DNA of 64,000 bases. Origin: an uncultured bacterium. GTDB taxonomy: Bacteria > Patescibacteriota > Minisyncoccia > Phycocordibacterales > UBA6065. Where the stretch lies: NCBI GenBank assembly GCA_966243015.1, contig CBIMES010000001.1:214837-278836 (forward strand). The letters run 5' to 3'. Each line of letters begins with the position of its first letter. Positions within the stretch are counted from its first letter, which is position 1. A program made the position numbers and the translations under genes. Below the pieces are notes generated by a model. That model was not told the origin of the DNA. It searched no databases and saw nothing but the letters and a program-made list of their open reading frames with translations. Shown here in pieces: positions 2-36,915 of the stretch.

Positions 2-514
2 CTCTGCCGCGCCTACAACAAGGAGTACGGCACGAATTACGTGTCGGTCATGCCTGCCAACCTGTACGGCCCGAACGACAACTTTGACCTGAGGACCTCG
101 CACGTCTTCCCGGCGCTCATCCGCAAATTCCACGAGGCCAAGGTTCGCGGCGACGAGAGCGTGACGATGTGGGGCACGGGATCGGCCCTCCGCGAGTTCA
201 TGCACGCGGACGATGTGGCTGCGGCCTGCCTCTGCGTCATGCTTAATCACAACGGCGACGATCTCGTGAATATCGGCACGGGACAGGACGTGACCATCAA
301 GGAGCTTGCCAACACCATGAAGAAGGTCATCGGCTTCCAGGGCGACATTGTCTGGGACTCAAGCAAGCCTGACGGCACGCCGCGCAAGCTTCTCGACGTA
401 TCGCGACTCAGGAGCCTTGGCTTCGAGCATTCGGTCGGCCTCGAGGAGGGAATCAGGAGGACCTACGAGTGGTACATGCAGTCTCTCGAGGACAAGAAGG
501 GGGCCCAGAAATAA
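2..514 (+). CDS. fcl: GDP-L-fucose synthase (GDP-4-keto-6-deoxymannose 3,5-epimerase/4-reductase), C-terminal part; 5' end lies outside the window
   Basis: The frame is open from nt 2. The translation (...CRAYNKEYGTNYVSVMPANLYGPNDNF...WGTGSALREFMHADD...) matches the conserved Fcl/WcaG short-chain dehydrogenase core. Stop at 512-514. Confidence 0.85.
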   Translation, partial: LCRAYNKEYGTNYVSVMPANLYGPNDNFDLRTSHVFPALIRKFHEAKVRGDESVTMWGTGSALREFMHADDVAAACLCVMLNHNGDDLVNIGTGQDVTIKELANTMKKVIGFQGDIVWDSSKPDGTPRKLLDVSRLRSLGFEHSVGLEEGIRRTYEWYMQSLEDKKGAQK

Positions 515-525
515 CATCTACATAC

Positions 526-1455
526 ATGAAAAAGGTAATCCAGTTCCTGACCAAGAAGAAAAATGGCCTCATCCTCCGCGGGCGACGCCTTAACCTCCGG
601 CTCAGGGGTAACCCACGACCGTCGAGCTATCCGATCGTGACAGGTGACTCGTTCCGCGCCCTCGCCAAGCACATTTATGACGAGACGGACGAGTTTATTC
701 CTGGCGCTGTCGCCGCGGGCGATATTGTCTTCGTCAGCCAGGCCAAGGCGCTGCGCTACCTTCAGGAGCAGCACCCGGACATTCCTGCACCGTACGTGCT
801 CATCGTCCACAACGGCGATCAGACCTTCGGCAAGCGACATACTGACCTTTTCGACGACAAGATCATTCACTGCTATGCCCAGAACACGGCCGTCAATCAC
901 CCGAAGGTGACGCCGCTGCCGATCGGCCTCTCGAATTTCCACAACTTCGAGCATACGGACGAGCTCTACTTCACCCCGCCCTCCCGCGTGCCCGAGTCAG
1001 AGTGGGCGACGCGGAAGGACCGCTTTTTCTACCGTTTCGCCAACGAGACGTGCCCGTCTGTCCGCGTGCCGCTGAAGGCCCTCTGCGACAAGATGCCTCT
1101 TGCCGAGACCGTGCGCGAGCGCGTCTCCCAGGAGCGTTTCAAGGAGATTCTTCGTAGCTACAAGTTCCTCGTCTCGCCGCGCGGGAACGCCATCGACACC
1201 CATAGGCCGTACGAGTCGTTCCATCTCGGCATCATTCCCGTGGTTGAGGACTCCGTCGCCCTTCGCTCGCTCCGTGACCGTGGCCTGCCGATCTGGATCG
1301 TGAACGACTGGAAGGACCTCGGGGGCCTCACCGAGAAGGACGTGGCGAAAAAGTACGCCGAACTCATGGGCAAGGCAAACTTCGAGGCCATGCACATGGA
1401 CTACTGGATCGCCAAGATCAAGGAAAGCCAGAAGAAGGCGCTCGCCGCCGCGTAG
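526..1455 (+). CDS. hypothetical protein (309 aa) next to fcl and the glycosyltransferase cluster; possibly polysaccharide-modifying, no domain recognised
   Basis: ORF-track ORF 469..1455. The internal ATG at 526 (MKKVIQF...) is taken as the start because it follows the fcl stop. GC-rich codon usage consistent with neighbours. A hairpin terminator follows at ~1477-1505. Confidence 0.5.
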   Translation: MKKVIQFLTKKKNGLILRGRRLNLRLRGNPRPSSYPIVTGDSFRALAKHIYDETDEFIPGAVAAGDIVFVSQAKALRYLQEQHPDIPAPYVLIVHNGDQTFGKRHTDLFDDKIIHCYAQNTAVNHPKVTPLPIGLSNFHNFEHTDELYFTPPSRVPESEWATRKDRFFYRFANETCPSVRVPLKALCDKMPLAETVRERVSQERFKEILRSYKFLVSPRGNAIDTHRPYESFHLGIIPVVEDSVALRSLRDRGLPIWIVNDWKDLGGLTEKDVAKKYAELMGKANFEAMHMDYWIAKIKESQKKALAAA

Positions 1456-1476
1456 GTTTTCGACGTTCGGGCAAGC

Positions 1477-1505
1477 AAAAAGGCTCCCTCGGGGGAGCCT
1501 TTGTC
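1477..1505. terminator. bidirectional intrinsic terminator hairpin (aggctccctcgggggagcct) between convergent genes
   Basis: Perfect GC-rich inverted repeat with A/T runs on both sides. It sits between the + gene ending at 1455 and the - gene ending at 1521. Confidence 0.5.
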
Positions 1506-1520
1506 TTTCCGTCGCTAACC

Positions 1521-1973
1521 CTATCTCGCCGTCGAGACGGGCGGACAGAAGTTCGGAGGGGCGAAGGGGGAGAGTCCGCCGGTCCGTATCAGTCTGTTGC
1601 GGAGCGCCCTTCTTCTCGAGAAGCCCGAGAGGACGGGGCTTGCCGTGCGCACGCTTCTGGCGTGCGCGGCGACCCGTCCCGCGTATTCCTTCACCCTCCT
1701 GAGGAGTTCGGGCTCGTCGAGGTTTGGCCAGATCGTCTTGATCCTTTCGAGTCTCGCCGTGATTGCGGCCTCGAGCGCCCTGCCGAACGGGTCGGCCTGA
1801 AACTCCGGGAGCTCTTTGGTGGCCGTGGCCTGGTCCACTATCTCGAAGAGAAGCCTCATGCCCTCTGTCCCGACATTCCGGGTGAAGCCCTCGTAATCGT
1901 GCCCGTGCGCCTGCTCGCCCTCGGGTTTGCTGCCCTGACGACTGTCGAAATCAAGCCTTCCTTGCGTTTCCAT
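1521..1973 (-). CDS. hypothetical protein (150 aa)
   Basis: ORF-track ORF with no compositional oddity. An AT-rich putative promoter region (1974-2075) lies upstream. The C-terminal tail is low-complexity, so the true stop or start may differ. Confidence 0.45.
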   Translation of the reverse strand: METQGRLDFDSRQGSKPEGEQAHGHDYEGFTRNVGTEGMRLLFEIVDQATATKELPEFQADPFGRALEAAITARLERIKTIWPNLDEPELLRRVKEYAGRVAAHARSVRTASPVLSGFSRRRALRNRLIRTGGLSPFAPPNFCPPVSTAR

Positions 1974-2075
1974 ACGTGCCTTTCATGGTGCGTGGTTGAT
2001 GTGCCTGTTTCTACCGATACTCTGAAGTGTCTATGTATATTTTGCAATATAAAACCTATTTACGCAAATAGTAAT

Positions 2076-2103
2076 CCCCACCGAGCCGAAGCTGGTGGGG
2101 ATG
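2076..2103 (-). terminator. intrinsic terminator (ccccaccgagccgaagctggtgggg) downstream of the small gene at 2115..2330
   Basis: 7-bp GC stem followed on the minus strand by a T-rich tract. Confidence 0.5.
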
Positions 2104-2114
2104 TACGCAGGTCC

Positions 2115-2330
2115 TCAGCGGTTGAAGACCTTTACTCGTTTGCCGCGGCCCATGGGGAAGTGACCCAGGAGGCGTGCGGCGCTGAGCCCATCGACGTTGT
2201 ATCTATGCTGTTCTGGTGCTGGTGAAGGGGACCTTTCGGAAGGTTCCCTGGCCGAATCGAGTTCGGCGAGCGCTTGCTTGAAGCCTTGCATCAATCCTCC
2301 GACGTGAACGGGATGTGAGATGGCGTGCAT
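2115..2330 (-). CDS. small hypothetical protein (71 aa, MHAISHPVHVGGLMQGFKQALAELD...GRGKRVKVFNR) with very strong expression signals
   Basis: This is the C-terminal in-frame part of the artefactual 600-aa ORF 2115..3917. Upstream on the minus strand lie a consensus TTGACA-17-TATAAT promoter (~2379-2407) and a GAAGGAGAAG Shine-Dalgarno 8 nt before the ATG. The terminator at 2076-2103 follows downstream. Confidence 0.5.
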   Translation of the reverse strand: MHAISHPVHVGGLMQGFKQALAELDSAREPSERSPSPAPEQHRYNVDGLSAARLLGHFPMGRGKRVKVFNR

Positions 2331-2378
2331 GGTTCTTCTCCTTCGACCGAAGCCTATCAAACAACTCTTACGTATATA

Positions 2379-2407
2379 ATTATACACCCAAGGGACACTT
2401 TTGTCAA
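2379..2407 (-). promoter_or_regulatory. consensus sigma70-type promoter (TTGACA-17 nt-TATAAT) driving the small gene at 2115..2330
   Basis: Minus-strand reading gives TTGACAaaagtgtcccttgggtgTATAAT, a perfect match to both hexamers with a 17-nt spacer. Confidence 0.5.
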
Positions 2408-2473
2408 TATTAGAAAACGCCGCGCTCCTTTTGGCAAGTGCGGCGTTTCCAGCACATCGAAAGGGAAGAGGGT

Positions 2474-2926
2474 TTAGGCGAAGAGGGAGTCTACGACCTC
2501 CTTGATGTCCGCTCCGTCGGCCTTGCCCTTGAGCTCTTTGTTGATGGCCCCGATGAGCTTGCCTGCGCCGGCCTTGTCGGCGACGCCGAGCTCCGCCTTC
2601 TTTGCCTCGGCGATTTTTCTGATTTCGTCCTTCGGCATGGTTGCGGGGAGATAAGCGACGAGGATGGCGAGCTCCTTCTGCTCGCTTTCGGCAAGCTCCG
2701 GTCGACCTCCTTTCACGAACTGGTCGATCGAGTCCTTGCGCTGCTTCACCAGTCGCTTCACGACGGCAATAACCTCGTCGTCGGTGCCCTCGGTCGCCGA
2801 GGACCCCTTGGCAATAAGCTCCTTCTGAATTTCGGCCGAGACGGCTCGCAGGGCGAGGAGTCGGTCCTGGTCCTTGGCGATCATGGCTTCCTTGGTGTGG
2901 GCTTTGATGGTTTGGTGTAGTGACAT
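2474..2926 (-). CDS. yqeY: GatB/YqeY domain-containing protein
   Basis: 150-aa translation with the characteristic YqeY-family Lys/Glu-rich sequence (…LRAVSAEIQKELIAKG…ILVAYLP…). A terminator hairpin lies downstream at ~2440-2470. Confidence 0.85.
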   Translation of the reverse strand: MSLHQTIKAHTKEAMIAKDQDRLLALRAVSAEIQKELIAKGSSATEGTDDEVIAVVKRLVKQRKDSIDQFVKGGRPELAESEQKELAILVAYLPATMPKDEIRKIAEAKKAELGVADKAGAGKLIGAINKELKGKADGADIKEVVDSLFA

Positions 2927-2966
2927 GCCAATACTCTAGCATATCTGCCTCTGGTATACTTGCTTC

Positions 2967-4070
2967 ATGAACACAACCCTTCTCGTCATTCTGATCCTCG
3001 CCCTGGTTGGCATCAACGGCGCGATTCTGTTCGTCGTCCTGCGCCGAAGACCCGCTGACGCCCCGAAGGCTGACGATACGGGACTCAAGCTCCTCCTGGA
3101 CCAGATGAACGAGCTTAATCGCACCGTTGACCGCAGAATCAACGAGACGAGTCGCACTATCACGGAGTCCATGCGTGACCAGCGTAACGAGTCGCAGAAG
3201 GTGGCGGGCGAGTCTCAGCGCCTCGTCGACCAGTTCCTTCGCGAGATCAAGTCCGTGACCGAGAAGGTGACCCGCGTCGAGGAGACCGGCAAGCAGATGG
3301 TGGGCTTCGCTGACCAGCTTCAGGGCCTCCAGGACATGCTCAAGAACCCGAAGCAGCGCGGGGTGCTCGGCGAGTACTATCTCGAGACGCTCCTCAAGAA
3401 CGTCCTGCCGCCGGGAAGCTTCGAGATGCAGTACCCGTTCAAGGACGGCGAAATCGTCGACGCCGTGGTGCGGATCAAGGATAAGATTATACCCGTTGAC
3501 TCGAAATTCTCGCTCGAGAATTACAATCGTATCGTCGAGACAAGGGACGAGGCCGAGAAGTCTCGCCTCGAGAAGCTTTTCGTCAACGACCTCAAGCTTC
3601 GCATTCAGGAGACCTCGAAATACATTCGCCCAAGCGAGAACACCATGGACTTCGCCTTCATGTTCATCCCGCACGAGGCCATCTATTACGACCTGCTCGT
3701 GAATAAGATTGGCGCTATTACCGAGGACACTGACAACCTGATTCAGCGTGCGGCCAATAAATACAAGGTCATCATCGTCTCGCCAACCTCGTTCCTCGCG
3801 TATCTCCAGACGGTGCTCCAGGGACTCAAGGCCCTTCAGATCGAGGAGGCCGCCAAGGACATCACCAAGCGCGTCGAGGAGCTCGGTAAGCACCTTCGCG
3901 CCTATGAGGAGTATCACGATAAGCTCGGCAACAACCTTCAGACGGTGGTAAATCAGTACAACTTCTCGTCAAAGGAGCTTAAAAAAGTAGACAAAGACGT
4001 GCTTCGCATCACGGGAAACGCGGCGGGTCTCGATCCGATGCTTGTCGCGGGGCCGGAGAGGGAGGATTAG
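2967..4070 (+). CDS. rmuC: DNA recombination protein RmuC
   Basis: 367 aa with an N-terminal TM segment, a coiled-coil region and the conserved RmuC C-terminal core (…FAFMFIPHEAIYYDL…VIIVSPTSFLAYL…). An extended -10 (ctcTGgTATACT) sits 6 nt upstream of the ATG. Confidence 0.85.
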   Translation: MNTTLLVILILALVGINGAILFVVLRRRPADAPKADDTGLKLLLDQMNELNRTVDRRINETSRTITESMRDQRNESQKVAGESQRLVDQFLREIKSVTEKVTRVEETGKQMVGFADQLQGLQDMLKNPKQRGVLGEYYLETLLKNVLPPGSFEMQYPFKDGEIVDAVVRIKDKIIPVDSKFSLENYNRIVETRDEAEKSRLEKLFVNDLKLRIQETSKYIRPSENTMDFAFMFIPHEAIYYDLLVNKIGAITEDTDNLIQRAANKYKVIIVSPTSFLAYLQTVLQGLKALQIEEAAKDITKRVEELGKHLRAYEEYHDKLGNNLQTVVNQYNFSSKELKKVDKDVLRITGNAAGLDPMLVAGPERED

Positions 4071-4176
4071 GGTGCCGCGATATCGCGGGACATAAGGCAA
4101 CTTGCCTTTTTTGGGGCCCTGTGTAATACTATCGGGACCCCAGCCCTTAACAGGGCTCTATATATTTAAAGATTTT

Positions 4177-4536
4177 ATGGCTACCACCAAAGCAAAGAAG
4201 ACCGAGACCTCAGCTGATACCTTCGCGGTTATCATGACCGGAGGCAAGCAGTACCAGGTTCGCGTAGGCGACGAGCTCAAGATCGAGAAGATCACGGGCG
4301 AGCACAAGGTCGGCGACAAGCTCACCTTCGACAAGGTTCTCCTCGTCGACGCAGCGGGTGAGACCAAGATCGGCGCTCCAGAGGTCAAGGGCGCAACCGT
4401 ATCTGCCGAGATCAAGGAGATCGGCCGACTCCCTAAGGTCACCGTTGTTCACTACAAGCAGAAGTCAAAGTACTTCAAGAAGTACGGCCACAAGCAGCCT
4501 TTCTTCAAGGTAGCGATCACCTCGATCGCAGCATAA
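4177..4536 (+). CDS. rplU: 50S ribosomal protein L21 with a short N-terminal Lys/Thr-rich extension
   Basis: Translation (FAVIMTGGKQYQVRVGDELKIEKI…VVHYKQKSKYFKKYGHKQPFFKV) is a typical L21. The internal ATG at 4177 is chosen over the ORF-track start at 4102. A terminator hairpin follows at ~4540-4567. Confidence 0.9.
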   Translation: MATTKAKKTETSADTFAVIMTGGKQYQVRVGDELKIEKITGEHKVGDKLTFDKVLLVDAAGETKIGAPEVKGATVSAEIKEIGRLPKVTVVHYKQKSKYFKKYGHKQPFFKVAITSIAA

Positions 4537-4602
4537 CAAAAAGCCCCGCTCAAGCGGGGCTTTTGCTGTGTACATTGATGGTCGATAGACTATAATCAAA
4601 TT

Positions 4603-5427
4603 ATGAATAATCGTAGGATCGGGTTCACGCTCATCGAGCTTCTCGTCGTCATAGCGATCATCGGTCTTCTTTCGTCGGTTGTCCTCGCGAGCCTTAACTC
4701 TGCCCGAGAGAGGGCTCGCCTCGCGGCGGCCCAGTCTTTTGCATCGCAGACGTATCGCGCCCTCGGGGCCTCTGCTGCGGGAGCCTGGAACTTCGAGGGC
4801 CAGTCCGCCTCAATCGCGACTGACTTGTCGGGAAACAATAACGGCGGCACGATCTCGGGTTCAGTCACCTATGTCAGCGGTCCCGTGTCCTCCTCCGTCG
4901 CGATTGGCCTCTTCTCGGACTCCTACGTGCAAATTGTCGATGATCCCTCGCTCAACATGGGCACGGGCGATTTCACCATCATGGCCTGGGTCCGCACCGC
5001 GGGCTACGTTGCCCACGGATCAGCCTGGAACATCCTTATCGGCAAGGGAGACTGTTGCATTAGCCCTGGGTACGCTATCGGGTACGGCGCCAACAATCTG
5101 CCGGGATTATTCCTCGGGTCAGCCCAGGTCGCCGTCGCGAGCACGGCAATCGGTGATGACAAGTGGCATCATATCGCGGCGGTAAGGAAGGGCACTGAAG
5201 TCAAAATGTACGTTGACGGCAGGGAAAGCGGCTCGGGCACAGTGAGCGGCTCCACGAGCGCTAGCCCGTCGTCAGCTTTGTTTATAGGGAAGGATTCAAA
5301 CGGCGTGGTGAGGGCGATACGGGGATATGTCGATGATGTCGTCCTCGTTCCTTCGGCGCTCACGGCGTCAGAGGTGTTTCTCAGGTATGCAGAGAGCTCT
5401 CCGGCCCCTGTCGTCGCTACTGAGTAG
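4603..5427 (+). CDS. type IV pilin-like protein (prepilin N-terminal methylation/cleavage motif) with a C-terminal LamG/ConA-like jelly-roll domain
   Basis: N-terminus MNNRRIGFTLIELLVVIAIIGLLSSVVLASLN is a class III signal peptide (G/FTLIE). The C-terminal region (GDFTIMAWVRT…KWHHIAAV…MYVDG…FIGKD…RGYVDDVVLVPSALTASEV) is a Laminin_G_3-type fold. TATAAT lies 6 nt upstream of the ATG. Confidence 0.8.
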   Translation: MNNRRIGFTLIELLVVIAIIGLLSSVVLASLNSARERARLAAAQSFASQTYRALGASAAGAWNFEGQSASIATDLSGNNNGGTISGSVTYVSGPVSSSVAIGLFSDSYVQIVDDPSLNMGTGDFTIMAWVRTAGYVAHGSAWNILIGKGDCCISPGYAIGYGANNLPGLFLGSAQVAVASTAIGDDKWHHIAAVRKGTEVKMYVDGRESGSGTVSGSTSASPSSALFIGKDSNGVVRAIRGYVDDVVLVPSALTASEVFLRYAESSPAPVVATE

Positions 5428-6565
5428 TGTTCGTTGCCGGTCCTTGTCTTTGAAGGCGCGACCTCAGCGCTTCCACGAATTTCTCGGTGTCAAAGTTTCC
5501 CGCTCGTTCCCTGCATGCGCGGTCGTATCTGCCGGGGTCTCGTGCGAGGTTGTCGGAGACTTCTCTCATGGCTGCCGCGAGCCGTCGCCCGTCGACGTCC
5601 TTTACGAGCAAACCTGTCTCTCCGTTGACAACGGTTTCCCTGTAACCTCCCTTGTCAGACGCGACGACTGGCTTTCCGGCGGCCATGGCCTCGACCGTCG
5701 ACATGCCGAAGTCCTCGTCGAGGGCCGTTGCGAGAAGGCCTTTTGCGCCCGCGTAGAGCGCGACAAGCTCTTCCTGGGGGACCCAGCTCCTGATGGACAC
5801 GTTGGATGGGCAGATTCTGTCGAGCTCCTCTTTGTAGCCCTCGAACTGTATCGCCCCTCGCTCGTAGCTGCCCACTATGACGAGTCTTTCCTCGGGCATG
5901 AGCGACAGCGCCTCCATTTGTATCTCGATGCGCTTGGGCCGCATGATTCTGTTTACCGACAGCCAGTATCCAGGCTTCTCGTTTGTCGCGGCTGTCGGCA
6001 GCTCAAACCTTTTCGTGTCCGTGGGCGGATAGGCTATCTCCGCCTCCTTTCGATAGTATCTTCTGATGCGATCCTGGGTGTTCGCGGAATTGCACATCCA
6101 GGCCCCGACGCTTTTCGCGTACCGCAGGGTGATTCTCCTGTTCATGTGTGCCCACAGGTCAAAAAGAGGCCTCTTCCATCGGGTCTTGACGATCTCGTCT
6201 CTGACGTAATCCTTGAATTCCCAGAGCTCGTTCAGGGGCGAGTGGGCGTACCACAGATTTGGCGAGTGGTTGACGGCGGCCGACATGGCCCAGTCGCCGC
6301 ATATGACGTACCTGTCATATGATTTTCCGAGGCTGAGCCTTCTGAAGCGCCAGAGCGTCGCCTGATGTCTGAAAGGGGCCTTCTTTGGCACCCGCCCGAT
6401 GGATTTGACGCGAGGGAGAACGTCCCCGAATCCCATGTTCCTAATATGCCCTTCGCTCACGTTCGTCGTGTAGACGTCCGCGCCCAGGGCTCGGGCAAGG
6501 GTGAGCGTGACGATTTCCGCCCCGCCGATGTTGTCCATGAAGCTGTGGAATATGGCGACTCTCAT
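5417..6565 (-). CDS. glycosyltransferase family 4 (GT-B, RfaG-like)
   Basis: 382 aa. The C-terminal EX7E-like region (…DEDFGMSTVEAMAAGKPVVASDKGGYRETV…) is typical of GT4. Confidence 0.8.
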   Translation of the reverse strand: MRVAIFHSFMDNIGGAEIVTLTLARALGADVYTTNVSEGHIRNMGFGDVLPRVKSIGRVPKKAPFRHQATLWRFRRLSLGKSYDRYVICGDWAMSAAVNHSPNLWYAHSPLNELWEFKDYVRDEIVKTRWKRPLFDLWAHMNRRITLRYAKSVGAWMCNSANTQDRIRRYYRKEAEIAYPPTDTKRFELPTAATNEKPGYWLSVNRIMRPKRIEIQMEALSLMPEERLVIVGSYERGAIQFEGYKEELDRICPSNVSIRSWVPQEELVALYAGAKGLLATALDEDFGMSTVEAMAAGKPVVASDKGGYRETVVNGETGLLVKDVDGRRLAAAMREVSDNLARDPGRYDRACRERAGNFDTEKFVEALRSRLQRQGPATNTTQ

Positions 6566-7722
6566 AGCTCCTGTATGCCAAGGGTGCTTATCATGAAGGA
6601 CGAGAAAATCGTCTGAACCCCGAGGGCGATGAGGGTGAGGGCGACGATCGAGCTCTTTGCGGCATCGAGCGATCCAAACCCGGACTGGGCCCAGGCGATA
6701 AAGACAGAGGCGTACACGGCCGTGCCGACCAGCGCGATCAGCATTCCGGCGACGCAGGCTCTCTCGAGGGTTACCACCCTGAGCGCCCTTTCGAAGAGGG
6801 GGCTTCTTTCACCGAGGTGCGCGAAAGCGTACGCCTTTGAGAAGGCGGAGAACAAGACGAGCTGATATCCGATGATTACCGTGGCGGCGAGGGGGAACAT
6901 GGGGTGGACGTAGAAATGCATGCCAAATATAGTTGGGTCTGAGAGCAAGAACACGATAAGGCCCAGCGCGCCCGTGAGCGACAGGGCAATGCCCGGCGCG
7001 AGAAAGAGGGCGACGGGGGAGCAGAGGAGTATGAAGCGGAGGTGCCTCCAGCCGTCGGAAAAGGACCTGAGCTTTGACGCACCGGTTCTCGCCCTGTATC
7101 TCACGGGTATTTCGGCCATGCGAAGTCGCTGTTTTGCGGATTTGACGATCATCTCAGAGGCAAACTCCATGCCGCTCGTCCTGAGTCCGATTGCTTCAAA
7201 CCCACGTCGCGTTATGGCGCGGGCGCCGCAGTGCATGTCGCCGAGAGGCGCCTTGAAGAGCACCCTTACCAGCGTCGAGAGAAGGGGGTTGCCCAAGAAT
7301 CTGTGGAGAGGCGGCATGGCGCCCGGATCTATGCCTCCAGAGAATCTGTTGCCGACCACCAGGTCGTTTCCCTTGCTGATCTCGTCTACGAAGCGGGGAA
7401 TGTCGGAAAAGTCGTAGGTCCCGTCCATGTCTGCCATATAGATAATCTCGCCGCGCGCCTCCCTGAATCCTCGCAGGCAGGCGCTTCCGTAGCCTCGTCT
7501 TTCTTCGCGGACGAGCCTGAGGCCGGGAAAGGCTCTTGCCTCCTCTTCTATAATGGGGGCGCTTCGGTCAGTAGAGCCGTTGTCGACGACTATCACCTCG
7601 GCGCTGATGCTCTCGCGCAGGATGGTCTCACGGAGTGCTTTCAGGCATTTTTGCGCGGAGTCCTCCTCATTCAGGCATGGTATGACCACGGAGACGAGCG
7701 GGCTGTTCGAAGTGGGGCTCAT
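6562..7722 (-). CDS. glycosyltransferase family 2 with C-terminal TM helices; polyprenol-phosphate sugar transferase (ArnC/DPM1-like)
   Basis: N-terminal SVVIPCLNEE…VVDNGSTD…DMDGTY motifs (DXD) are followed by 4 predicted TM helices. Overlaps the GT4 gene by 4 nt (ATGA). Confidence 0.85.
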   Translation of the reverse strand: MSPTSNSPLVSVVIPCLNEEDSAQKCLKALRETILRESISAEVIVVDNGSTDRSAPIIEEEARAFPGLRLVREERRGYGSACLRGFREARGEIIYMADMDGTYDFSDIPRFVDEISKGNDLVVGNRFSGGIDPGAMPPLHRFLGNPLLSTLVRVLFKAPLGDMHCGARAITRRGFEAIGLRTSGMEFASEMIVKSAKQRLRMAEIPVRYRARTGASKLRSFSDGWRHLRFILLCSPVALFLAPGIALSLTGALGLIVFLLSDPTIFGMHFYVHPMFPLAATVIIGYQLVLFSAFSKAYAFAHLGERSPLFERALRVVTLERACVAGMLIALVGTAVYASVFIAWAQSGFGSLDAAKSSIVALTLIALGVQTIFSSFMISTLGIQEL

Positions 7723-7736
7723 GTTATGATGGCTAA

Positions 7737-9488
7737 ATGTTTCAGGTGATTATGGGCCTCGTATGCACGGCTGCCCCCTTTGCTCTGGTCTCTCTTTTTG
7801 GGGATAAGAGGAGAGGAATTCTTTGGGTCGCCCTGGGTATCCTCTCGCTTCACGCCCTCGTTGGCATCGGGTCTCAGGCCCTCGGTGTCTTTTCCTATCC
7901 CGTTGTCGCGACAGTCCATGTCTTGGCGTCTCTCGGGGCCTTGGCTTACGCGCTCTCGCGCGGTGCGGTGCGGGGGTGGTCCTTTTCCCGAGAGGGCCTC
8001 ATCGTACTTTGGGCTGTGGCAATTATAGTATTCCAGCTCGCGTTGGTCCATTACGACTATTCGGGGCCGGTGGCGTCGATAAAGGGTGAATCAATAGACA
8101 GGGGGGTGAATTATCCGTACCCACTGTTCTCTGATGAGTGGGTCGCCTCGTCGCTCATCTCTCACACCGTGAAGACCGGTTCGCTCCCCCTGGCGAATTC
8201 GCTCTGGGAGGGTGAGCGGTCGGTCAATCTCCTTGTGCCGTTCCATTCGCTTGCCTCCGAGGTCTCCCTTTTCTTCGGCCTCGATCCCGTTGTCGGCGTG
8301 CCTGTGCTTGCCATCGTGTTCGGTGCGCTGGTGTCTGTCTCGGCCATGTTCTTGGCGTGGTCCATGGGAGGAGGGGTGCTTGCTTCGGTGCTCGCGGGCG
8401 TCTTCGTTCCCTTAATCACGAATGGGTCAAACCTGCCGGGAATCTGGTTTCTCATGCCTTTCGTCGTCTCGCTCTCACCGTTCCTCTGGTTTCTATCTGC
8501 GCTTTCCGTGGGACGTCGTGGCCTCGCCGTCGGGTGCGGGTCCGTTTCGGTGCTCCTGTATCCTCCCATGCTGGTTTTTGTCCTTCCCGCGGGCCTTGCC
8601 TCTGCCTGGGGTTCGGGAAATGCCTTTTTGCGACGCACGTTTTTAATATGTGGTGCCGCCGTGCTCGCGGTCGCTTCGGCGGCAGGGCTCTCGGTGCTCC
8701 TGGGGCCAGGTGATTTTTGGGCGCGCGTATCAAGCGCTGTATTCCACGGCAATCTTGATGGGGGTGTCGCCTCTTACTCCTTCTGGAAGGTGCTGCCTGG
8801 GGCGCTCGCGCCCTTTTTCGTTCTCGGCTTCTTCAGGGCGTGGGGCAGGGAGTCTCGTCACGTTGTCGCCGCCGTCATCGTCGGTGCCTTTGCGTGGGTC
8901 GCGTACTCTGTGTTGCCGGTCGTGTTTCTTATAGAGCACCCTCGCGTCGTCGTCATAACGGCTGTCCTACTTTCGGTTTTCGCCGCGTTTGGTTTCTCCG
9001 CCGTCTTGGACGGTCTTCTCGGCACTCGACTCAGGCTTGTTTCTTGTGTGGTCGCGCTGGCTCTCGCTTCCTCAGTCTCCTTTTTGTACCCGTGGGGAGA
9101 CTCGTGGCGAGACCTCACGTTGTCGGTTCGCGCGGGCGGCGATGTCGTCACGGTGAGGCCCGCGGCACCGGTAAACCGCTATCTGCACCCTGATGACCTC
9201 AGGTTGTTCGAGGGTGTAACGGGCTCTCGCTTCATAGCGCCGCCCTGGAAGGGTCTCGTCATTGGCGCCGCGACGGGGAATTACCCTCTTGAGTCAAAGG
9301 CCTCCACTATTACGAACAGATACGTTCTCTATGCTGACTTCATGTCTTCTGGTTGTGATGCCAAGGCATCGATTGCCCAAGAGTGGAAGGTGTCTGTGGT
9401 CTATTCTGAGCCGTTTGATTGTAACGGCTTCCGTTCAACGGCCACGAGTTCTGAGGGTCTGGTGTTCTATCGCGTTCGTGGCTTCTAG
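7737..9488 (+). CDS. polytopic integral membrane protein, probable GT-C-type glycosyltransferase (ArnT/PMT/YfhO-like) partner of the adjacent GT2
   Basis: 583 aa with ~12 hydrophobic helices in the N-terminal 450 aa and a soluble C-terminal domain. The GT2 plus GT-C gene pair is the classic polyprenol-phosphate-sugar glycosylation arrangement. An extended -10 (TGtTATGAT) sits 6 nt upstream of the ATG. Confidence 0.6.
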   Translation: MFQVIMGLVCTAAPFALVSLFGDKRRGILWVALGILSLHALVGIGSQALGVFSYPVVATVHVLASLGALAYALSRGAVRGWSFSREGLIVLWAVAIIVFQLALVHYDYSGPVASIKGESIDRGVNYPYPLFSDEWVASSLISHTVKTGSLPLANSLWEGERSVNLLVPFHSLASEVSLFFGLDPVVGVPVLAIVFGALVSVSAMFLAWSMGGGVLASVLAGVFVPLITNGSNLPGIWFLMPFVVSLSPFLWFLSALSVGRRGLAVGCGSVSVLLYPPMLVFVLPAGLASAWGSGNAFLRRTFLICGAAVLAVASAAGLSVLLGPGDFWARVSSAVFHGNLDGGVASYSFWKVLPGALAPFFVLGFFRAWGRESRHVVAAVIVGAFAWVAYSVLPVVFLIEHPRVVVITAVLLSVFAAFGFSAVLDGLLGTRLRLVSCVVALALASSVSFLYPWGDSWRDLTLSVRAGGDVVTVRPAAPVNRYLHPDDLRLFEGVTGSRFIAPPWKGLVIGAATGNYPLESKASTITNRYVLYADFMSSGCDAKASIAQEWKVSVVYSEPFDCNGFRSTATSSEGLVFYRVRGF

Positions 9489-9849: not shown

Positions 9850-9890
9850 ACTAAATAAGCGGTCACCCTACAAGGTGGCCGCTTTTTGTT
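9850..9890. terminator. bidirectional intrinsic terminator (gcggtcaccctacaaggtggccgc + T-run)
   Basis: 8-bp GC stem flanked by A-run/T-run, between convergent genes. Confidence 0.5.
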
Positions 9891-10141
9891 TACTCGTCCC
9901 TGATCGACTTCACCTCGAGTTTTCTTCGAAGGGCCTTCCTTCGTTTCGCCTTTACCGGCACGGTGCCCGCGGCAATGTCCTGCATGAGCTTCCGCAGGTC
10001 CTCCTCCTTGTAGATGCGGTAGTTGCTCATCGGGTGCCTGGTGGTTGGCAACTTGCCGTTCTTGTCCCAGTTGCGCAGGGTGAGGGGAGTGACCCCGAGC
10101 ATTTCCGCCGCCTCTTTGATGGTGAGATACGTTCCTGACAT
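9890..10141 (-). CDS. small MerR/excisionase-family helix-turn-helix DNA-binding protein
   Basis: 83 aa. The stretch LTIKEAAEMLGVTPLTLRNWDKNGKLPTTRHPMSNYRIYKEEDL matches the HTH_17/excisionase (MerR-type) DNA-binding domain, and the C-terminal tail is basic. Confidence 0.7.
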   Translation of the reverse strand: MSGTYLTIKEAAEMLGVTPLTLRNWDKNGKLPTTRHPMSNYRIYKEEDLRKLMQDIAAGTVPVKAKRRKALRRKLEVKSIRDE

Positions 10142-10165
10142 GGTGTATAAACCTTGATAGATGAA

Positions 10166-10209
10166 AGTATACCAGAATTTCGGCGCATGCGGGTGAGTTC
10201 TGGTATACT
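10166..10209. promoter_or_regulatory. symmetric divergent promoter: two inverted 11-bp arms (gtataccagaa / ttctggtatac), each containing an extended -10 (TGGTATACT) facing outward, with a central cgcatgcg palindrome
   Basis: Perfect 11-bp inverted repeat with a 20-bp spacer. The right arm is the -10 for gap (ATG 10236) and the left arm read on the minus strand is the -10 for the HTH gene (ATG 10141). Confidence 0.5.
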
Positions 10210-10235
10210 GGACCCATCTAACTCACATCAACACC

Positions 10236-11279
10236 ATGTTCAGCACAAAGAAAATCCGCGTGGCAGTCAACGGCTTCGGCAGAATTGGCAGGGCTTTCGT
10301 GAAGGTCGCCCGCGAGTCAAAGGAAATTGAGGTCGTGGCGGTGAACGATCTTGGCAACGCGGCGAATCTGGCCTACCTTCTCAAGTACGACAGCGCCTAC
10401 GGAATTGCGCCGTTCGATGTGGAGGCGAAGGCCGACGGATCAGCCCTCGTCATCGACGGCAAGGAGATCAAGTTCATCCAGGAGAAAGACGCGACCAAGC
10501 TCCCGTGGAAGGCGCTCGACATTGACGTGGTTGTCGAGTCTACAGGCCTCTTCACCGCCTATGACAAGGCCCAGGTCCACATTACCGCGGGCGCCAAGCG
10601 CGTGGTAATCTCGGCCCCCGCAAAGGACGGCGACACCGCTTCTGTCCCGGGTGCGACCGTGCTCATGGGCCTTAACGAGGAGAAGATCGGCACCTGCCAG
10701 ATCACCTCGAACGCGTCGTGTACCACGAACGCAGGATCGCCCCTCATCGCTATCCTCGACGAGAAGATCGGCATCGCAAAGGCTCTCCTCAACACCGTGC
10801 ATGCCTACACCGCGACCCAGGCGCTCGTCGACGGGCCTTCCAAGAAGGATCTTCGCGAGGGCAGGGCGGCCGCGCAGAACATCATCCCGTCTTCGACCGG
10901 TGCGGCCATCGCCGTGACCAAGGCCTTCCCCCAGCTCGTGGGCAAGTTCGACGGCGTCTCGATTCGCGTGCCCGTCGTCGTCGGTTCTATTGTCGACATC
11001 ACTTTCCTCGCCAAGCGAAAGACGACCGCCGAGGAGGTTAACGCTATCCTCGTCGCGGCCTCAAAGGAGGATCGCTGGAAGAAGATTTTTGCCGTCTCCG
11101 ACGAACCCCTCGTCTCGACCGATATCAAGGGCAATCCGCACGCGTCAATCGCCGACCTCGAGTTCACCCGTGTCGTCGACGGCGACCTCGTGAAGGTTAT
11201 GGCCTGGTACGACAACGAGATGGGGTACACCCATACGCTGGTTGACCATGTCATCAAGGCAGGTCAGTCAATCAAGTAA
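10236..11279 (+). CDS. gap: glyceraldehyde-3-phosphate dehydrogenase (type I)
   Basis: 347 aa with the NGFGRIGR Rossmann motif and the SNASCTTN catalytic Cys motif. A terminator hairpin follows at ~11290-11325. Confidence 0.95.
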   Translation: MFSTKKIRVAVNGFGRIGRAFVKVARESKEIEVVAVNDLGNAANLAYLLKYDSAYGIAPFDVEAKADGSALVIDGKEIKFIQEKDATKLPWKALDIDVVVESTGLFTAYDKAQVHITAGAKRVVISAPAKDGDTASVPGATVLMGLNEEKIGTCQITSNASCTTNAGSPLIAILDEKIGIAKALLNTVHAYTATQALVDGPSKKDLREGRAAAQNIIPSSTGAAIAVTKAFPQLVGKFDGVSIRVPVVVGSIVDITFLAKRKTTAEEVNAILVAASKEDRWKKIFAVSDEPLVSTDIKGNPHASIADLEFTRVVDGDLVKVMAWYDNEMGYTHTLVDHVIKAGQSIK

Positions 11280-11336
11280 GTTATGTAAAAGGAAAAGCCC
11301 CGCATCATGATGCGGGGCTTTATGTTTCTGGCCTGG

Positions 11337-11876
11337 CTAGAAGGCCCGGCTGTAGCTGATGGACTTCATGCCTGACCACTTGAACTCGATTTTCTCGTGC
11401 CTGCTGACCTTCCACACGAGCCGTGACTGGACGTAGACGGTCACGTCCTGGCTCAGCACGGTGGTGTCGACGCCGCCCTTGAGGTCTCGGTAGAGCTCGT
11501 AGGTGCTGACGAACCTGTCTGCCACGTTGTAGAGCATGGACGTCTCGTCCCTGATCTTCGCTGTGAACTTGAACTGTCCGATGACCTCCATGGCGCTCGA
11601 CGAGTATGAGTGCCGGGGCGCGAACTTTTTTTCGAGATCGCGCAGACGGCGCTCGGTCTCCTTCGAGACCGTCGAGTAGTCGGTGAAGACAAGGACGACA
11701 GACGCCTCGGGCCGTCTTTCGTCGGTTGGGGTGGTTTGTTCTGCCTGTTTCGGTGTTTCTGATTTCTCCTCGGTCGTCGGCTCGTAGGGATACATCTCGA
11801 TGATGCGGTCCTTGGACGAGCCCGATGCCTCACTGGCTGCCGCAAGCGCTATGAGCGCGAACAACAGTGCTTTCAT
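11337..11876 (-). CDS. secreted hypothetical protein (signal peptide MKALLFALIALAAASEA)
   Basis: Internal Met of ORF-track ORF 11337..12047 chosen because it begins a canonical signal peptide. No domain recognised. Confidence 0.5.
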   Translation of the reverse strand: MKALLFALIALAAASEASGSSKDRIIEMYPYEPTTEEKSETPKQAEQTTPTDERRPEASVVLVFTDYSTVSKETERRLRDLEKKFAPRHSYSSSAMEVIGQFKFTAKIRDETSMLYNVADRFVSTYELYRDLKGGVDTTVLSQDVTVYVQSRLVWKVSRHEKIEFKWSGMKSISYSRAF

Positions 11877-12033
11877 AATCGTGTGCGTCGTGACGTTTCT
11901 GTGCGGGGTGGGGTACTCCTGACAAAGGTCCTTTGGGTATAAGTATCTGCCTTTTGCGGGGGAACGCCAGAAGGTTGTACACATGCTCCTCGGTACGGCT
12001 CTACAGGGCCCTTGGTCGTGATAGAATGAACAC

Positions 12034-12489
12034 ATGAGAATATTCATCGCAAGCGATCACGCCGGCTTCGAGCTCAAGAGGTTTCTCGTAGAGAGGCTCT
12101 CCCTCGCGGGACACGATGTGCGCGACCTGGGCGCGAAGGAGTTTGCCCCAGAGGATGACTATCCTGACTTCATATCTCTGGTGGGCAAGGAGATATCGCG
12201 CGAGCCAAGCTCGGTCAAGGGTATCGTCATCGGAGGCTCCGGCCAGGGCGAGGCGATTTGCGCCAATAAATTCTATGGCGTACGCGCCGTGGTCTATTAC
12301 GGCGGAAACACCGACATCGTGCGCCTCTCGCGCGAGCATAACGATGCGAATGTGCTCTCTCTCGGCGCACGGTTTCTCTCTGCGACTGACGCGCTCAACG
12401 CAGTCAATCTCTGGCTTGCCACGGCGTTCTCTGGGGACGAGAGGCACAAGAGGCGCATCCAAAAGCTCTATAACATCACCCATCTCTAG
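12034..12489 (+). CDS. rpiB: ribose-5-phosphate isomerase B (RpiB/LacAB family)
   Basis: 151 aa (MRIFIASDHAGFELK…GSGQGEAICANK…) typical of RpiB. An extended -10 (TGaTAGAAT) sits 6 nt upstream of the ATG. Confidence 0.9.
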   Translation: MRIFIASDHAGFELKRFLVERLSLAGHDVRDLGAKEFAPEDDYPDFISLVGKEISREPSSVKGIVIGGSGQGEAICANKFYGVRAVVYYGGNTDIVRLSREHNDANVLSLGARFLSATDALNAVNLWLATAFSGDERHKRRIQKLYNITHL

Positions 12490-12491
12490 GC

Positions 12492-12998
12492 ATGAGGACC
12501 AAGGGCTTTACTTTGATCGAGCTCCTCGTCGTGATATCTATTATCGCGCTCCTTTCGAGCGTTGTGCTGGCAAGCCTGAATACGGCGCGCGCCAAGGCGC
12601 GTGATTCCGAGAGGATCGCCGAGCTCAAGGCGGTTCAGACTGCCCTTGAGCTGTACCGAACTGACAACGGCTCCTATCCGTCCACGGGCGGCACCGGCAA
12701 CTGGCGGGGTATGTGCTCGAACTTCAACCCGGGCGGAACATATACGACCTCAGGCGCGTCCGGATACGTTCCTGGCCTCGCGCCGACCTACGTATCGGTT
12801 TTGCCACGCGATCCCAAGGAGGTGGCCGATTCGTGCTATGTCTACACCTCGAACGGCGTGGACTACATGATGCTTGCCTGGAGGACTGTCGAGGCGAACA
12901 TCGGTAACATTCCCGTCGCCTTGCAGAGGCAGAATACTTCATTTGGCTCGACTGACAGGACCTACGCGGTCTATTCGAGCGGCGCGGTCAGCTGGTAA
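12492..12998 (+). CDS. type IV pilin-like protein (short, 168 aa)
   Basis: N-terminus MRTKGFTLIELLVVISIIALLSSVVLASLN is a prepilin methylation motif. Paralogue of the gene at 17951..18436. Confidence 0.8.
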   Translation: MRTKGFTLIELLVVISIIALLSSVVLASLNTARAKARDSERIAELKAVQTALELYRTDNGSYPSTGGTGNWRGMCSNFNPGGTYTTSGASGYVPGLAPTYVSVLPRDPKEVADSCYVYTSNGVDYMMLAWRTVEANIGNIPVALQRQNTSFGSTDRTYAVYSSGAVSW

Positions 12999-13717
12999 TG
13001 CGTTATACTATTTCCATGAACGACATCATTCCCGCAATCCTTCCCAAGTCATACGCAGAGCTCGAGGACAAGCTCGGCTTGATAGCCTCGCACGCGCCCC
13101 TCGTGCAGATCGATATCTGCGATGGCGCGTACACGCAGTCGCGCACATGGCCGTACCTCAAGGGCGACTTTGACCAGATCTTCCAGGACATCATCGAGCA
13201 GAACCAGGCGCTTCCGGGCTGGGAGGAGATCGACTTCGAATTCGACCTCATGGTCAAGAATGCCCACGAGAAGATCCCTGATTTCATCTCAGCCGGCGCC
13301 TCGCGCATTGTCGTCCACAAGGACAGCCTGTCCGCGGACGAGCTCGAGGGCGTCGTAAGCGACTTCGGCAGGAAGTCGGAGGAACTGGGGCCCTTTGACA
13401 TCGAGCTGGGCGTCGCCCTCTCGAGCTCCGCGTCCGCGGGTGACATCGCCCCGCTTGTCGACAGGATTCACTTCGTCCAGGTCATGGGCATTGCGCAGGC
13501 GGGTTTCCAGGGCCAGCCGTTTGACCCTCGTGCGGTTGAGCTCGTGGCAGCCCTTCGCTCGGCATACCCCGATCTCCCGATATCGGTTGACGGGGGAGTG
13601 AATCTCGAGACCGCCAGGACTCTCCTTGATGCGGGTGCGGACCGCCTGGTCGTTGGTTCGGCACTTTTCAATGCGCCGAGTCTTATCGACGCGCTCGAGG
13701 GATTCCGATCCCTCTAG
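12998..13717 (+). CDS. rpe: ribulose-phosphate 3-epimerase-like TIM-barrel protein
   Basis: 239 aa with the Rpe-family pattern (…VQIDICDG…IVVH…FVQVMGIAQAGFQGQ…ISVDGGVN…LVVGSALF). Lies in a pentose-phosphate cluster with rpiB and tkt. Start overlaps the pilin stop. Confidence 0.75.
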   Translation: MRYTISMNDIIPAILPKSYAELEDKLGLIASHAPLVQIDICDGAYTQSRTWPYLKGDFDQIFQDIIEQNQALPGWEEIDFEFDLMVKNAHEKIPDFISAGASRIVVHKDSLSADELEGVVSDFGRKSEELGPFDIELGVALSSSASAGDIAPLVDRIHFVQVMGIAQAGFQGQPFDPRAVELVAALRSAYPDLPISVDGGVNLETARTLLDAGADRLVVGSALFNAPSLIDALEGFRSL

Positions 13718-13750
13718 AGTATCCGCGGCGCCATCTCGTCGTGGTAGAAT

Positions 13751-14617
13751 ATGCACATCACATCTATGGCCCTTTCAACCAAAAAAGTTCAGGAGCTCGA
13801 GCTTCAGGCGAACCAGATTCGCCAGTCCATCATCGAGATGCTGCTCGAGGCGGGCTCGGGTCACACCGCGGGACCGCTCGGCATGGCGGACATCTTCACG
13901 ACGCTCTATTTTTACACCCTCAATCATCGTCCCAAGGATCCGTCATGGGAAGGAAGGGACCGACTCGTTCTCTCGAATGGCCACATCTGCCCGGTGCTCT
14001 ACGCGACCATGGCTCACGCGGGATATTTTCCCGTTGAAGAGCTCAAGACCCTTCGCAAGTTCGGCTCGCGCCTTCAGGGGCATCCGCATCGCGAGTATCT
14101 GCCCATGCTCGAGACCTCGTCGGGTCCACTCGGCTCAGGCCTCTCTCAGGCCGTGGGTATGGCACTCGCCGATCGCATCGACAGCGGCAAGGCGTCGTCC
14201 CGCCGCATCTACTGCCTGACCTCCGATGGAGAGCATGACGAGGGTAATACATGGGAGGCGATTATGCTCGCGGGCAAGGAACGCCTCGGCAATCTCGTCT
14301 GCGTCATCGATCGCAACAATATTCAGATCGACGGTAACACGGAGGACATCATGCCTCTCGAGCCGTTCGTGAACAAGTACATCACCTTCGGTTGGCACGT
14401 CATCGAGATCGACGGCCACAACATGGAGGAGATTGCCGACGCCTTCGAGAAGGCTAAGGCCATTTTCGACAAGCCCGTCTGCATCATGGCCCACACAATT
14501 CCCGGCAAAGGCGTCGCTGAGTTTGAGAGGAAGTACGAGTGGCACGGCAAGCCGCCGAACAAGGAGGAGGCGGCGATGGCTTTGGCTGAACTTAAGGCGG
14601 CCGCGAAGAATATATAA
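13751..14617 (+). CDS. transketolase, N-terminal (thiamine-diphosphate-binding) subunit of a split transketolase
   Basis: Contains …AGSGHTAGPLGMADI… and GDG-type TPP-binding (…CLTSDGEHDEGNTWEA…). About 288 aa, which is subunit size. The ATG at 13766 (MALSTKK) is an alternative start, because the first ATG directly abuts an extended -10 (TGGTAGAAT). Confidence 0.9.
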   Translation: MHITSMALSTKKVQELELQANQIRQSIIEMLLEAGSGHTAGPLGMADIFTTLYFYTLNHRPKDPSWEGRDRLVLSNGHICPVLYATMAHAGYFPVEELKTLRKFGSRLQGHPHREYLPMLETSSGPLGSGLSQAVGMALADRIDSGKASSRRIYCLTSDGEHDEGNTWEAIMLAGKERLGNLVCVIDRNNIQIDGNTEDIMPLEPFVNKYITFGWHVIEIDGHNMEEIADAFEKAKAIFDKPVCIMAHTIPGKGVAEFERKYEWHGKPPNKEEAAMALAELKAAAKNI

Positions 14618-17087: not shown

Positions 17088-17133
17088 GGCCACTAGTATA
17101 GCAAAACCAACCCTTACTTCGTATAATGGGAAC

Positions 17134-17940: not shown

Positions 17941-17950
17941 TTTTGCTCTT

Positions 17951-31708: not shown

Positions 31709-31763
31709 AGACCTAAGTATATAGCTCGATTCGAGAGAGGAGGGCTCAAATTTTCTTAAAACC

Positions 31764-36801: not shown

Positions 36802-36915
36802 GGTTTTTGGATATGAGCTAAATGACAATAGTTTGCATGTAATCGGGGACTGACTGACGCTGGTTTCGGGCTATCTGGAAACATCAAACGGGCCCGATGG
36901 CCCGTTGACGCTTTT

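Follow-up and report, generated by a model that had tools for sequence, protein, structure and literature searches.

A GT4–GT2 gene pair divergent from an unannotated GT-C gene forms a probable cell-surface glycosylation cassette of ultra-small bacteria and archaea

In Haloferax, the glycosyltransferase (GT) AglJ starts the N-glycan that is linked to dolichyl phosphate (Dol-P), whereas ArnC and ArnT are an undecaprenyl phosphate (Und-P)-L-Ara4N synthase and the GT83 transferase that modifies lipid A; ArnT and the PMT enzymes share a DE motif in loop 1. The slg clusters of Gram-positive bacteria direct ABC-transporter-dependent glycosylation of S-layer proteins by means of Wzm/Wzt and the O-oligosaccharyltransferase WsaB: GT2 and GT4 enzymes build a lipid-linked glycan in the cytoplasm, Wzm/Wzt exports it, and it is then transferred en bloc to the surface protein. 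The transferase of the slg systems is of the WaaL/Wzy_C type, and initiation is carried out by a phosphoglycosyl transferase on undecaprenyl diphosphate (Und-PP). Here we analyse a 64-kb stretch of contig CBIMES010000001.1 from an uncultured patescibacterium (64,000 nucleotides; the window), in which the genes for a GT4 and a GT2 are divergent from the gene for a membrane protein of 583 amino acids (aa). We find that the 583-aa protein belongs, according to its predicted structure, to the GT-C class, and that the trio is the core of a cassette found in bacteria of the candidate phyla radiation (CPR) and in DPANN archaea. Members of both groups live on host cells, to which they are attached, and their surfaces have hardly been characterised; the cassette is probably a cell-surface glycosylation kit of these ultra-small cells.

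The 583-aa protein had no useful match in Pfam, NCBIfam or the sequences of the PDB, even when profiles of 6, 33 or 133 sequences were used, and Pfam returned no sequence match to PMT_2/ArnT, YfhO or PMT, nor the MIR domain of PMT. An AlphaFold2 model calculated from an alignment of 133 family sequences (alignment A2, also used for conservation) reached pLDDT 95.3 and pTM 0.94 and replaced an earlier model from six sequences (pLDDT 70). Foldseek placed only STT3, PglB and AglB structures among its best 16 matches (E 8e-8 to 2e-5), with STT3 at E 8e-8 and a probability of 1.0. The modelled membrane domain can be superposed on solved GT-C enzymes, as is required of members of the GT-C_A class, with structure-comparison scores of 19.2 for AglB (3waj), 19.1 for ArnT (5f15), 18.7 for ALG12, 18.1 for STT3B, 16.3 for AftA, 15.7 for PglB and 15.3 for Pmt4. 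A transporter identity was rejected, since transporters appeared in Foldseek only at noise level (E > 0.07, probability < 0.2). The model thus identifies the 583-aa protein as a GT-C glycosyltransferase, in agreement with an earlier reading of the window made from the DNA letters and their translations (the sequence-only reading). The 12 transmembrane (TM) helices counted in that reading are an approximation, as model and hydropathy together give about 13–14 TM helices followed by a C-terminal soluble domain of about 130 aa (about residues 455–583).

Across the 133 sequences, D133, K505, Y275, P129, P517 and F535 are invariant, and E134, W135, R403, W504 and K521 are 99% conserved. The acidic pair D133/E134 forms part of an SDEW motif (132–135) at the N-terminus of helix 132–147, within the extracytoplasmic loop 107–187 that follows TM4, and is predicted to represent the acidic catalytic position of the GT-C_A class. 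Other conserved features are NLPGxW (232–237), YPP (275–277) and W457 and, in the C-terminal domain, W504-K505-G506, P517, K521, F535 and the pair C540/C562; a motif PWKG(L/T)V stands at a helix start in place of WWDYG. By the positive-inside rule (KRR at 24–26 and Arg-rich loops at 73–86, 258–260, 299–300, 371–376 and 431–433), the conserved residues would all lie on the outer face. This orientation fits an extracytoplasmic active site, and the conserved cysteine pair likewise fits an extracytoplasmic location of the C-terminal domain. The latter matches the minimal central-core (CC) unit, which in AfAglB-S1 and AfAglB-S2 constitutes the entire C-terminal domain (PMC3703281). Taken together, the Foldseek ranking and the CC-type domain of the model point to the oligosaccharyltransferase lineage; the TM core cannot separate oligosaccharyltransferases from single-sugar GT-C enzymes, because AglB, ArnT and ALG12 tie.

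A word-indexed protein search found only six relatives of the 583-aa protein. We rejected a family of this size as an artefact of word-indexed searching with a hydrophobic query, and the apparent rarity of a membrane protein in such a search is not to be trusted: a full HMMER scan of 1.84 billion representatives yielded 563 clusters at E <= 1e-3 and 276 at E <= 1e-30. When the species genomes of the Genome Taxonomy Database (GTDB) were scanned, the GT-C family was found at 80 loci (L012–L091). The bacterial carriers are Patescibacteria (Nomura-, Staskawicz- and Taylorbacteria, Paceibacterota), and the archaeal carriers are metagenome-assembled genomes (MAGs) labelled Pace-, Woese- or Nanoarchaeota, all DPANN (for example L025, L076 and L083), in which the GT2, GT4 and Wzm/Wzt partners are found as well; L076 has archaeal-type pilins with class III signal peptides nearby. 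GT-C identity is as high between the domains as within Bacteria (mean 36% versus 34%), and inter-domain maxima are 51% for GT-C, 72% for GT2 and 74% for GT4, values that fit a lateral transfer of the cassette, provided that the MAG labels are sound. In full-text literature searches we found no description of this GT-C family or of the cassette.

To describe the conserved neighbourhood we clustered all open reading frames (ORFs) of 86 non-redundant loci. GT-C was counted at 85 of these, the orthologous GT2 at 59, the orthologous GT4 at 47, an ABC ATPase at 43, an ABC-2 permease at 41 and a GT8 at 13. In the subset of 48 loci whose two flanks each extend for 3 kb or more, GT2 (within 10 kb of GT-C) and GT4 were each present at 40 and both together at 38. 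The GT2 is the direct neighbour of GT-C at 38 of the 86 loci, and a GT2 with a GT2_TM_C domain is divergently paired with GT-C in six of six close homologue contexts, a pairing far beyond chance. The divergent gap in the window measures exactly 14 bp, as had been stated before; its counterpart in homologous loci spans 9–200 bp. Promoter and terminator scans around the spacer gave nothing above shuffled expectation, and an Rfam scan of the whole window gave no match.

The ABC proteins make up a pair of the Wzm/Wzt or TagGH type that resembles galactan and teichoic-acid exporters, and Wzm/Wzt often follows GT-C with overlapping codons in the order GT-C>Wzm>Wzt (L053, L056, L061, L066, L068, L073, L075). 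Of 38 loci with flanks of at least 5 kb, 27 have Wzm/Wzt and 6 a Wzx-like gene, so that 31 have at least one of these exporters and 7 have neither. A tblastn search with the GtrA-family protein of the window detected no GtrA homologue at any of the 86 loci. No phosphoglycosyl transferase was recognised among the clusters present in at least three loci, a judgement made partly by eye, so that, of the conserved membrane enzymes, GT2 alone could initiate synthesis on a lipid phosphate. Around this core, GT8, GT11, NodZ/FUT8-like, pyruvyl transferase, sulfotransferase and TagF-like genes come and go; their products are cytoplasmic and nucleotide-sugar-dependent, as expected if a glycan is assembled on a lipid inside the cell. 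At some loci, additional multi-pass membrane proteins of 520–640 aa without a Pfam match lie between or beside GT2 and GT4 (L007 6872–8785(-), L076 7216–8784(-), L025 5265–6914(+)) and may be further unannotated GT-C enzymes.

The GT2 of the window has four C-terminal TM helices (about 231–257, 276–294, 316–342 and 359–383) and a GT2_TM_C domain in precomputed annotation. In the PDB it is matched best by the P. furiosus Dol-P-Man synthase 5mlz (E 4e-19) and next by ArnC (E 1.7e-12), and the DXD of the N-terminal GT-A domain is kept in the 5mlz alignment (query D98-M-D100). The proposal that it is a polyprenol-phosphate enzyme with a C-terminal membrane anchor is borne out by these helices and alignments. 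Among NCBIfam models, AglJ (TIGR04182) matched best with 130.6 bits, below its cutoff of 325 and hence informative at family level only. The GT4 has no TM helix and is soluble; its best PDB match is the A. fulgidus ‘first mannosyl transferase WbaZ-1’ (2f9f, E 2.7e-36), and its orthologues are 43–55% identical across CPR and DPANN loci. As the second gene of the GT2-GT4 operon, it begins with an ATG that overlaps the GT2 stop codon (ATGA), suggesting translational coupling.

ORF listing together with Pfam and NCBIfam scans gave the gene map in Table 1. All five genes named in the sequence-only reading exist, that is, fcl, the gene for a 309-aa protein, GT4, GT2 and the membrane protein. They do not form the single contiguous locus that had been described: about 4 kb of unrelated genes splits fcl and the 309-aa gene from the GT4-GT2-GT-C trio, and there are two modules, not one compact locus.

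Table 1. Features at the start of the window and the GtrA-family gene
Feature	Position	Strand	Basis
fcl, GDP-L-fucose synthase, 3' fragment (170 aa) cut by the window start	2-514	+	NF047922, 249 bits
Putative 309-aa GT-B glycosyltransferase, exostosin/GT114 type	526-1455	+	PDB and Pfam matches
Hypothetical protein, 150 aa	1521-1973	-	ORF listing
YqeY	2474-2926	-	Pfam/NCBIfam scans
RmuC	2967-4070	+	Pfam/NCBIfam scans
Ribosomal protein L21	4177-4536	+	Pfam/NCBIfam scans
Type IV pilin with LamG domain	4603-5427	+	Pfam/NCBIfam scans
GT4, 382 aa, GT-B	5417-6565	-	Glycos_transf_1, E 5e-24
GT2, 386 aa, polyprenyl-phosphate glycosyltransferase (AglJ/DPMS/ArnC type)	6562-7722	-	Glycos_transf_2, E 6e-30
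Spacer between the start codons of the divergent GT2 and GT-C genes, 14 bp, gttatgatggctaa	7723-7736	.	Read directly
Predicted GT-C-fold membrane glycosyltransferase, 583 aa, unannotated family	7737-9488	+	AlphaFold2 model, Foldseek, motifs
GtrA-family membrane protein, 131 aa	56260-56655	-	PF04138 GtrA_DPMS_TM, E 4.7e-16

The trio itself is surrounded by housekeeping genes and genes of the pentose-phosphate pathway. A conserved central-carbon block (window 9890–14617, also L005 and L009) with a MerR-like regulator, GAPDH, RpiB, Rpe and a split transketolase encloses the cassette in this lineage; the insertion point in L009 is between Rpe and transketolase. On the other side of the trio, the 3' end of the pilin gene overlaps the convergent 3' end of the GT4 gene by 11 bp, an arrangement also seen in L005.

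A longer contig of the same genome (L001) allowed us to follow the fucose module beyond the window start. Just upstream, the minus strand carries, in this order, wzx (Polysacc_synt, 508 aa), an ORF of 70 aa and gmd, which diverge from the pair of fcl and the 309-aa gene, so that both the flippase and the gmd gene for which a search had been recommended are present in this genome. Gmd matched TIGR01472 with 558 bits, above the cutoff of 415, and full-length Fcl (316 aa) matched NF047922 with 478.5 bits, just under the cutoff of 500 and far above other short-chain dehydrogenase/reductase models. The 309-aa gene starts 11 bp downstream of fcl. Its product, left as an unknown by the sequence-only reading, aligns with the chlorovirus PBCV-1 protein A075L over 210 residues (8q8i/8avq/8asa, E 1.5e-20), with D98 of the query at the catalytic Asp of A075L and PRGNAIDTHR opposite PRGNGIDTHR, such that the PRGNxIDTHR block is kept; Pfam RXYLT1_C gave 28.9 bits. 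Judging by these alignments, the protein is a putative GT114-like glycosyltransferase of the GT-B type and a homologue of A075L. A075L, with which CAZy family GT114 was founded, attaches beta-xylose at position O4 of L-fucose (PMC11571054), and the position of the 309-aa gene 11 bp past fcl makes sense because A075L xylosylates L-fucose. Like A075L, which acts on L-fucose, the 309-aa protein has a tie to fucose, in its case the adjoining pathway genes; unlike A075L it belongs to a CPR bacterium, and its N-terminal 90 residues are unaligned.

How closely fucose belongs to the cassette can be judged from other genomes. Genes for fcl or gmd lie within 10 kb of GT-C at only 3 of the 80 other-genome loci (L045, L049, L060), and fucose-related genes of any kind are near GT-C at about 10 loci: GT11 at five, a NodZ/FUT8-like gene in L007, and gmd/fcl at the three loci named. 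Since fcl and gmd are rare near GT-C while GT11 and NodZ-like genes recur, fucose is at most an optional decoration. No fucosyltransferase was identified in the window, and in this genome the wzx-gmd-fcl-GT114 module and the GT-C cassette are linked by their 8-kb proximity only, which suggests a connection weakly, although the upstream module could supply export and outer sugars to the trio. A necessary link between the cassette and fucose is unsupported: gmd and wzx are indeed nearby, but the genes fall into two modules and fucose genes accompany GT-C only occasionally. In L018 (10179–11884), as well as in L020, L021, L029 and L034, GT-C is directly followed by GT11, the alpha-1,2-fucosyltransferase family, and DUF3431, with a Wzx-like gene upstream and without the ABC exporter; this subgroup is a Wzx-type, fucose-linked variant of the cassette.

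Several secreted proteins with Thr/Pro-rich linkers had been put forward, which overstates their number: 36370–36828(-) is a clear case and 31289–31765(-) a weaker one. The former encodes the only protein of the window with a 30-aa stretch of at least 60% Ser, Thr or Pro (67%, with 40% Thr). It is small and membrane-anchored, its 40%-Thr linker being followed by a Cys-rich C-terminal domain (CYVGGCSGQICSD...C...C...C...C), and belongs to no Pfam family. Nothing ties such linkers to the GT-C enzyme beyond the existence of this one clear Thr-rich protein, and their proposed role as its substrates is speculation. Glycosylation of pilins was rejected as a leading explanation and kept as a minor lead: at distances of up to 1 kb from GT-C the density of pilin genes is about 4.5 times higher, but this involves only 4 of 67 bacterial loci, and the proximity argument is weakened by the five pilin genes that the 64 kb of the window contain anyway. 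Type IV pilin-like genes lie at 4603–5427(+), 12492–12998(+), 17074–17940(+), 17924–18436(+), 47656–48462(-) and 48473–49237(-); their N-termini are near-identical (GFTLIELLVVISIIxLLSSVVLASL), and the domain encoded at 4603–5427 is LamG/ConA-like. The GtrA-family protein is a possible candidate for the polyprenyl-phosphate-sugar flippase of this genome; it is the sole GtrA-family gene in the window, but its link to the cassette is weak because it lies 47 kb away. It adjoins 56668–60396(-), which encodes a secreted protein of 1242 aa that combines FN3, GDSL-esterase and peptidoglycan-binding domains, and a second GT4 (411 aa) is encoded just beyond, at 60463–61698(-). The region 56260–61698 may be another surface-glycan locus.

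We consider it very probable that the donor of the 583-aa GT-C is polyprenyl-phosphate-linked and stems from the adjacent GT2. From the conserved gene set and the model we infer, tentatively and at somewhat short of even confidence, a route in which GT2 begins a short glycan on polyprenyl phosphate, GT4 lengthens it and, after export, GT-C transfers it en bloc. On the cytoplasmic side, the membrane-anchored GT2 would load polyprenyl phosphate with a first hexose, and the soluble, translationally coupled GT4 would lengthen the lipid-linked sugar, joined in some genomes by further cytoplasmic enzymes and in this one perhaps by the GT114-like enzyme and by GDP-fucose from Gmd and Fcl. The lipid-linked glycan would then be flipped or exported, by Wzm/Wzt in most relatives and here maybe by the upstream Wzx, and the 583-aa GT-C would transfer it on the outer face, most likely to a surface protein. 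In this last step D133/E134 of the first external loop would serve as catalytic residues, and the AglB-like C-terminal domain (W504-K505-G506, K521) would help to bind the substrate. A glycan built on a polyprenol carrier and passed on en bloc had already been proposed for this locus; the carrier fits the conserved gene set and the en bloc step is plausible. We regard the en bloc route as the most economical reading, because all conserved genes have a part in it and we recognised no recurrent gene that might carry out an additional conserved step. The presence of the cassette in both Bacteria and Archaea leads us to propose polyprenyl phosphate as carrier and a protein as acceptor, as opposed to domain-specific lipids or wall polymers. 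The cassette would then follow the same logic as N-glycosylation in Euryarchaeota (AglJ ... AglB), with the transfer left to a GT-C family whose sequence does not place it in STT3.

Several observations weigh against this route. The 64-kb window of this genome has no Wzm/Wzt, and its Wzx lies 8 kb away in a separate module. ABC-2 exporters are known for long polymers and, to our knowledge, have not been established to flip short polyprenyl-monophosphate glycans. No acceptor was identified, with pilin genes within 1 kb of GT-C at only the few bacterial loci given above. The archaeal assignment is based on MAG titles, gene content having been checked for L076 only. At the level of sequence, neither the window protein nor the six members matched STT3 (PF02516) in Pfam even at E <= 10, no W[WF]D[YWF][GS] (WWDYG) motif occurs in long ORFs of the window or of 91 loci, and the motif in loop 1 is DE, not DXD. 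An hhalign comparison with a PglB profile assigned a probability of 22% to the TM part and of 0.1% to the C-terminal domain, a weak negative given that this profile is narrow, consisting of Campylobacter sequences only (its query is 99% identical to the C. jejuni PglB entry). Judged by spacing in the sequence, C540-x-x-K543 on helix 540–549 resembles DxxK. Since the sequence features of STT3 are not found, we file the protein in a separate, unannotated GT-C family.

An alternative to which we also give considerable weight, while doubting it, is a three-component decoration system of the ArnC/ArnT, GtrB/GtrC, CsbB/YfhO, GacI/GacL or AglD/AglS type, in which GT2 makes a polyprenyl-phosphate monosaccharide that is flipped and GT-C adds this single sugar to a target on the outside, such as a Wzm/Wzt-exported glycopolymer built by GT4 and GT8, a glycolipid or a protein-bound glycan. 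Gene pairs of a TM-bearing GT2 and a GT-C are the hallmark of such systems, the DE of loop 1 is PMT/ArnT-like, the Wzm/Wzt proteins resemble galactan and teichoic-acid exporters (TagGH), L007 has a TagF-like gene, and the window does contain a GtrA-family gene. Against this, none of the 86 loci has a GtrA-type flippase, and we recognised no initiating phosphoglycosyl transferase and no polymer ligase (LCP/WaaL) in the families that occur at three or more loci, which were checked partly with Pfam and partly by eye. The minimal loci (the window, L005 and L014) hold only GT4, GT2 and GT-C amid housekeeping genes, so the polymer machinery would have to lie elsewhere. Moreover, teichoic-acid-like acceptors are not expected in the DPANN archaea that have the same module, and a decoration role leaves the highly conserved AglB-like C-terminal domain without explanation.

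PMT-like O-glycosylation of Thr/Pro-rich linkers, with fcl, the 309-aa gene, GT4, GT2 and GT-C serving one fucose-glycan pathway, appears improbable to us. It could draw on the GT-C fold with an invariant DE as in PMTs, on a Ppm1-like GT2 next to GT-C, on the Thr-rich membrane-anchored protein at 36370–36828, on the fucose-related genes near GT-C at about 10 loci, and on gmd and wzx just upstream of the window. The five genes are, however, not contiguous, most loci are without fcl or gmd, the window has only one strongly Thr-rich protein and no identified fucosyltransferase, and single-sugar transfer of the PMT type would leave the co-conserved GT4 and exporter without a role. It is very improbable that the 583-aa protein is inactive, as a GT-C-fold scaffold or transporter-like protein comparable to PIG-U/GAB1 of the glycosylphosphatidylinositol transamidase, given the invariant acidic pair at the canonical loop-1 position and many invariant outer-face residues, the strict genomic coupling to a donor-making GT2, and the noise-level scores of transporters. 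A bolder version of the en bloc route holds that the family is a second, WWDYG-less oligosaccharyltransferase lineage which glycosylates surface proteins (S-layer, pilin) en bloc with a polyprenyl-monophosphate-linked glycan as donor and whose five-gene cassette moved between DPANN and CPR. We think this unlikely on present evidence, though worth stating: if true, GT2, GT4, Wzm, Wzt and GT-C would be the general protein-glycosylation system of these episymbionts and the cassette a determinant of their cell-surface identity. A cassette common to CPR and DPANN offers a tangible starting point for studying surface decoration in these organisms, and its small size of three to five genes makes reconstitution in E. 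coli feasible.

Compared with described systems, the cassette combines features that are otherwise found apart. By its route as proposed here, namely cytoplasmic lipid-linked assembly, Wzm/Wzt export and en bloc transfer, it would resemble the slg systems as they have been described, but the transferase is a GT-C, and the sole conserved candidate for initiation is a GT2 of the DPMS/AglJ type, which would form a monophosphate linkage. With ArnC/ArnT, GtrB/GtrC, CsbB/YfhO, GacI/GacL, AglD/AglS and Ppm1/Pmt it shares the gene pair of a membrane-anchored GT2 and a GT-C and the DE-type acidic motif of loop 1; ArnC is among the PDB matches of its GT2. It differs from all these pairs in that the 583-aa protein matches none of PMT_2/ArnT, YfhO and PMT, in that the conserved neighbourhood has no GtrA-type flippase, and in that a GT4 and a Wzm/Wzt or Wzx exporter are co-conserved with a GT-C whose C-terminal domain is highly conserved.

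The family thus stands outside STT3, PMT and ArnT and is unrecognised by current Pfam, NCBIfam and PDB sequence models, its nearest relatives being AglB in architecture and C-terminal domain and ArnT in overall superposition. The 583-aa protein is like AglB (GT66), and especially like A. fulgidus AglB-S1/S2 (about 590 aa), in joining a multi-pass TM region to a small C-terminal extracytoplasmic domain at a similar length, and the likeness to AglJ/AglB N-glycosylation extends to the adjacent GT2, which is most similar to AglJ. It is unlike AglB in showing no sequence-level relationship, no WWDYG and DE instead of DxD, in having about three extra N-terminal TM helices, and in belonging to a family found mainly in CPR bacteria. 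Its C-terminal core recalls AglB, its DE motif PMT and ArnT, and the neighbouring candidate initiator AglJ, which makes the family a useful case in which to examine the relationship between oligosaccharyltransferases and GT-C enzymes that transfer single sugars.

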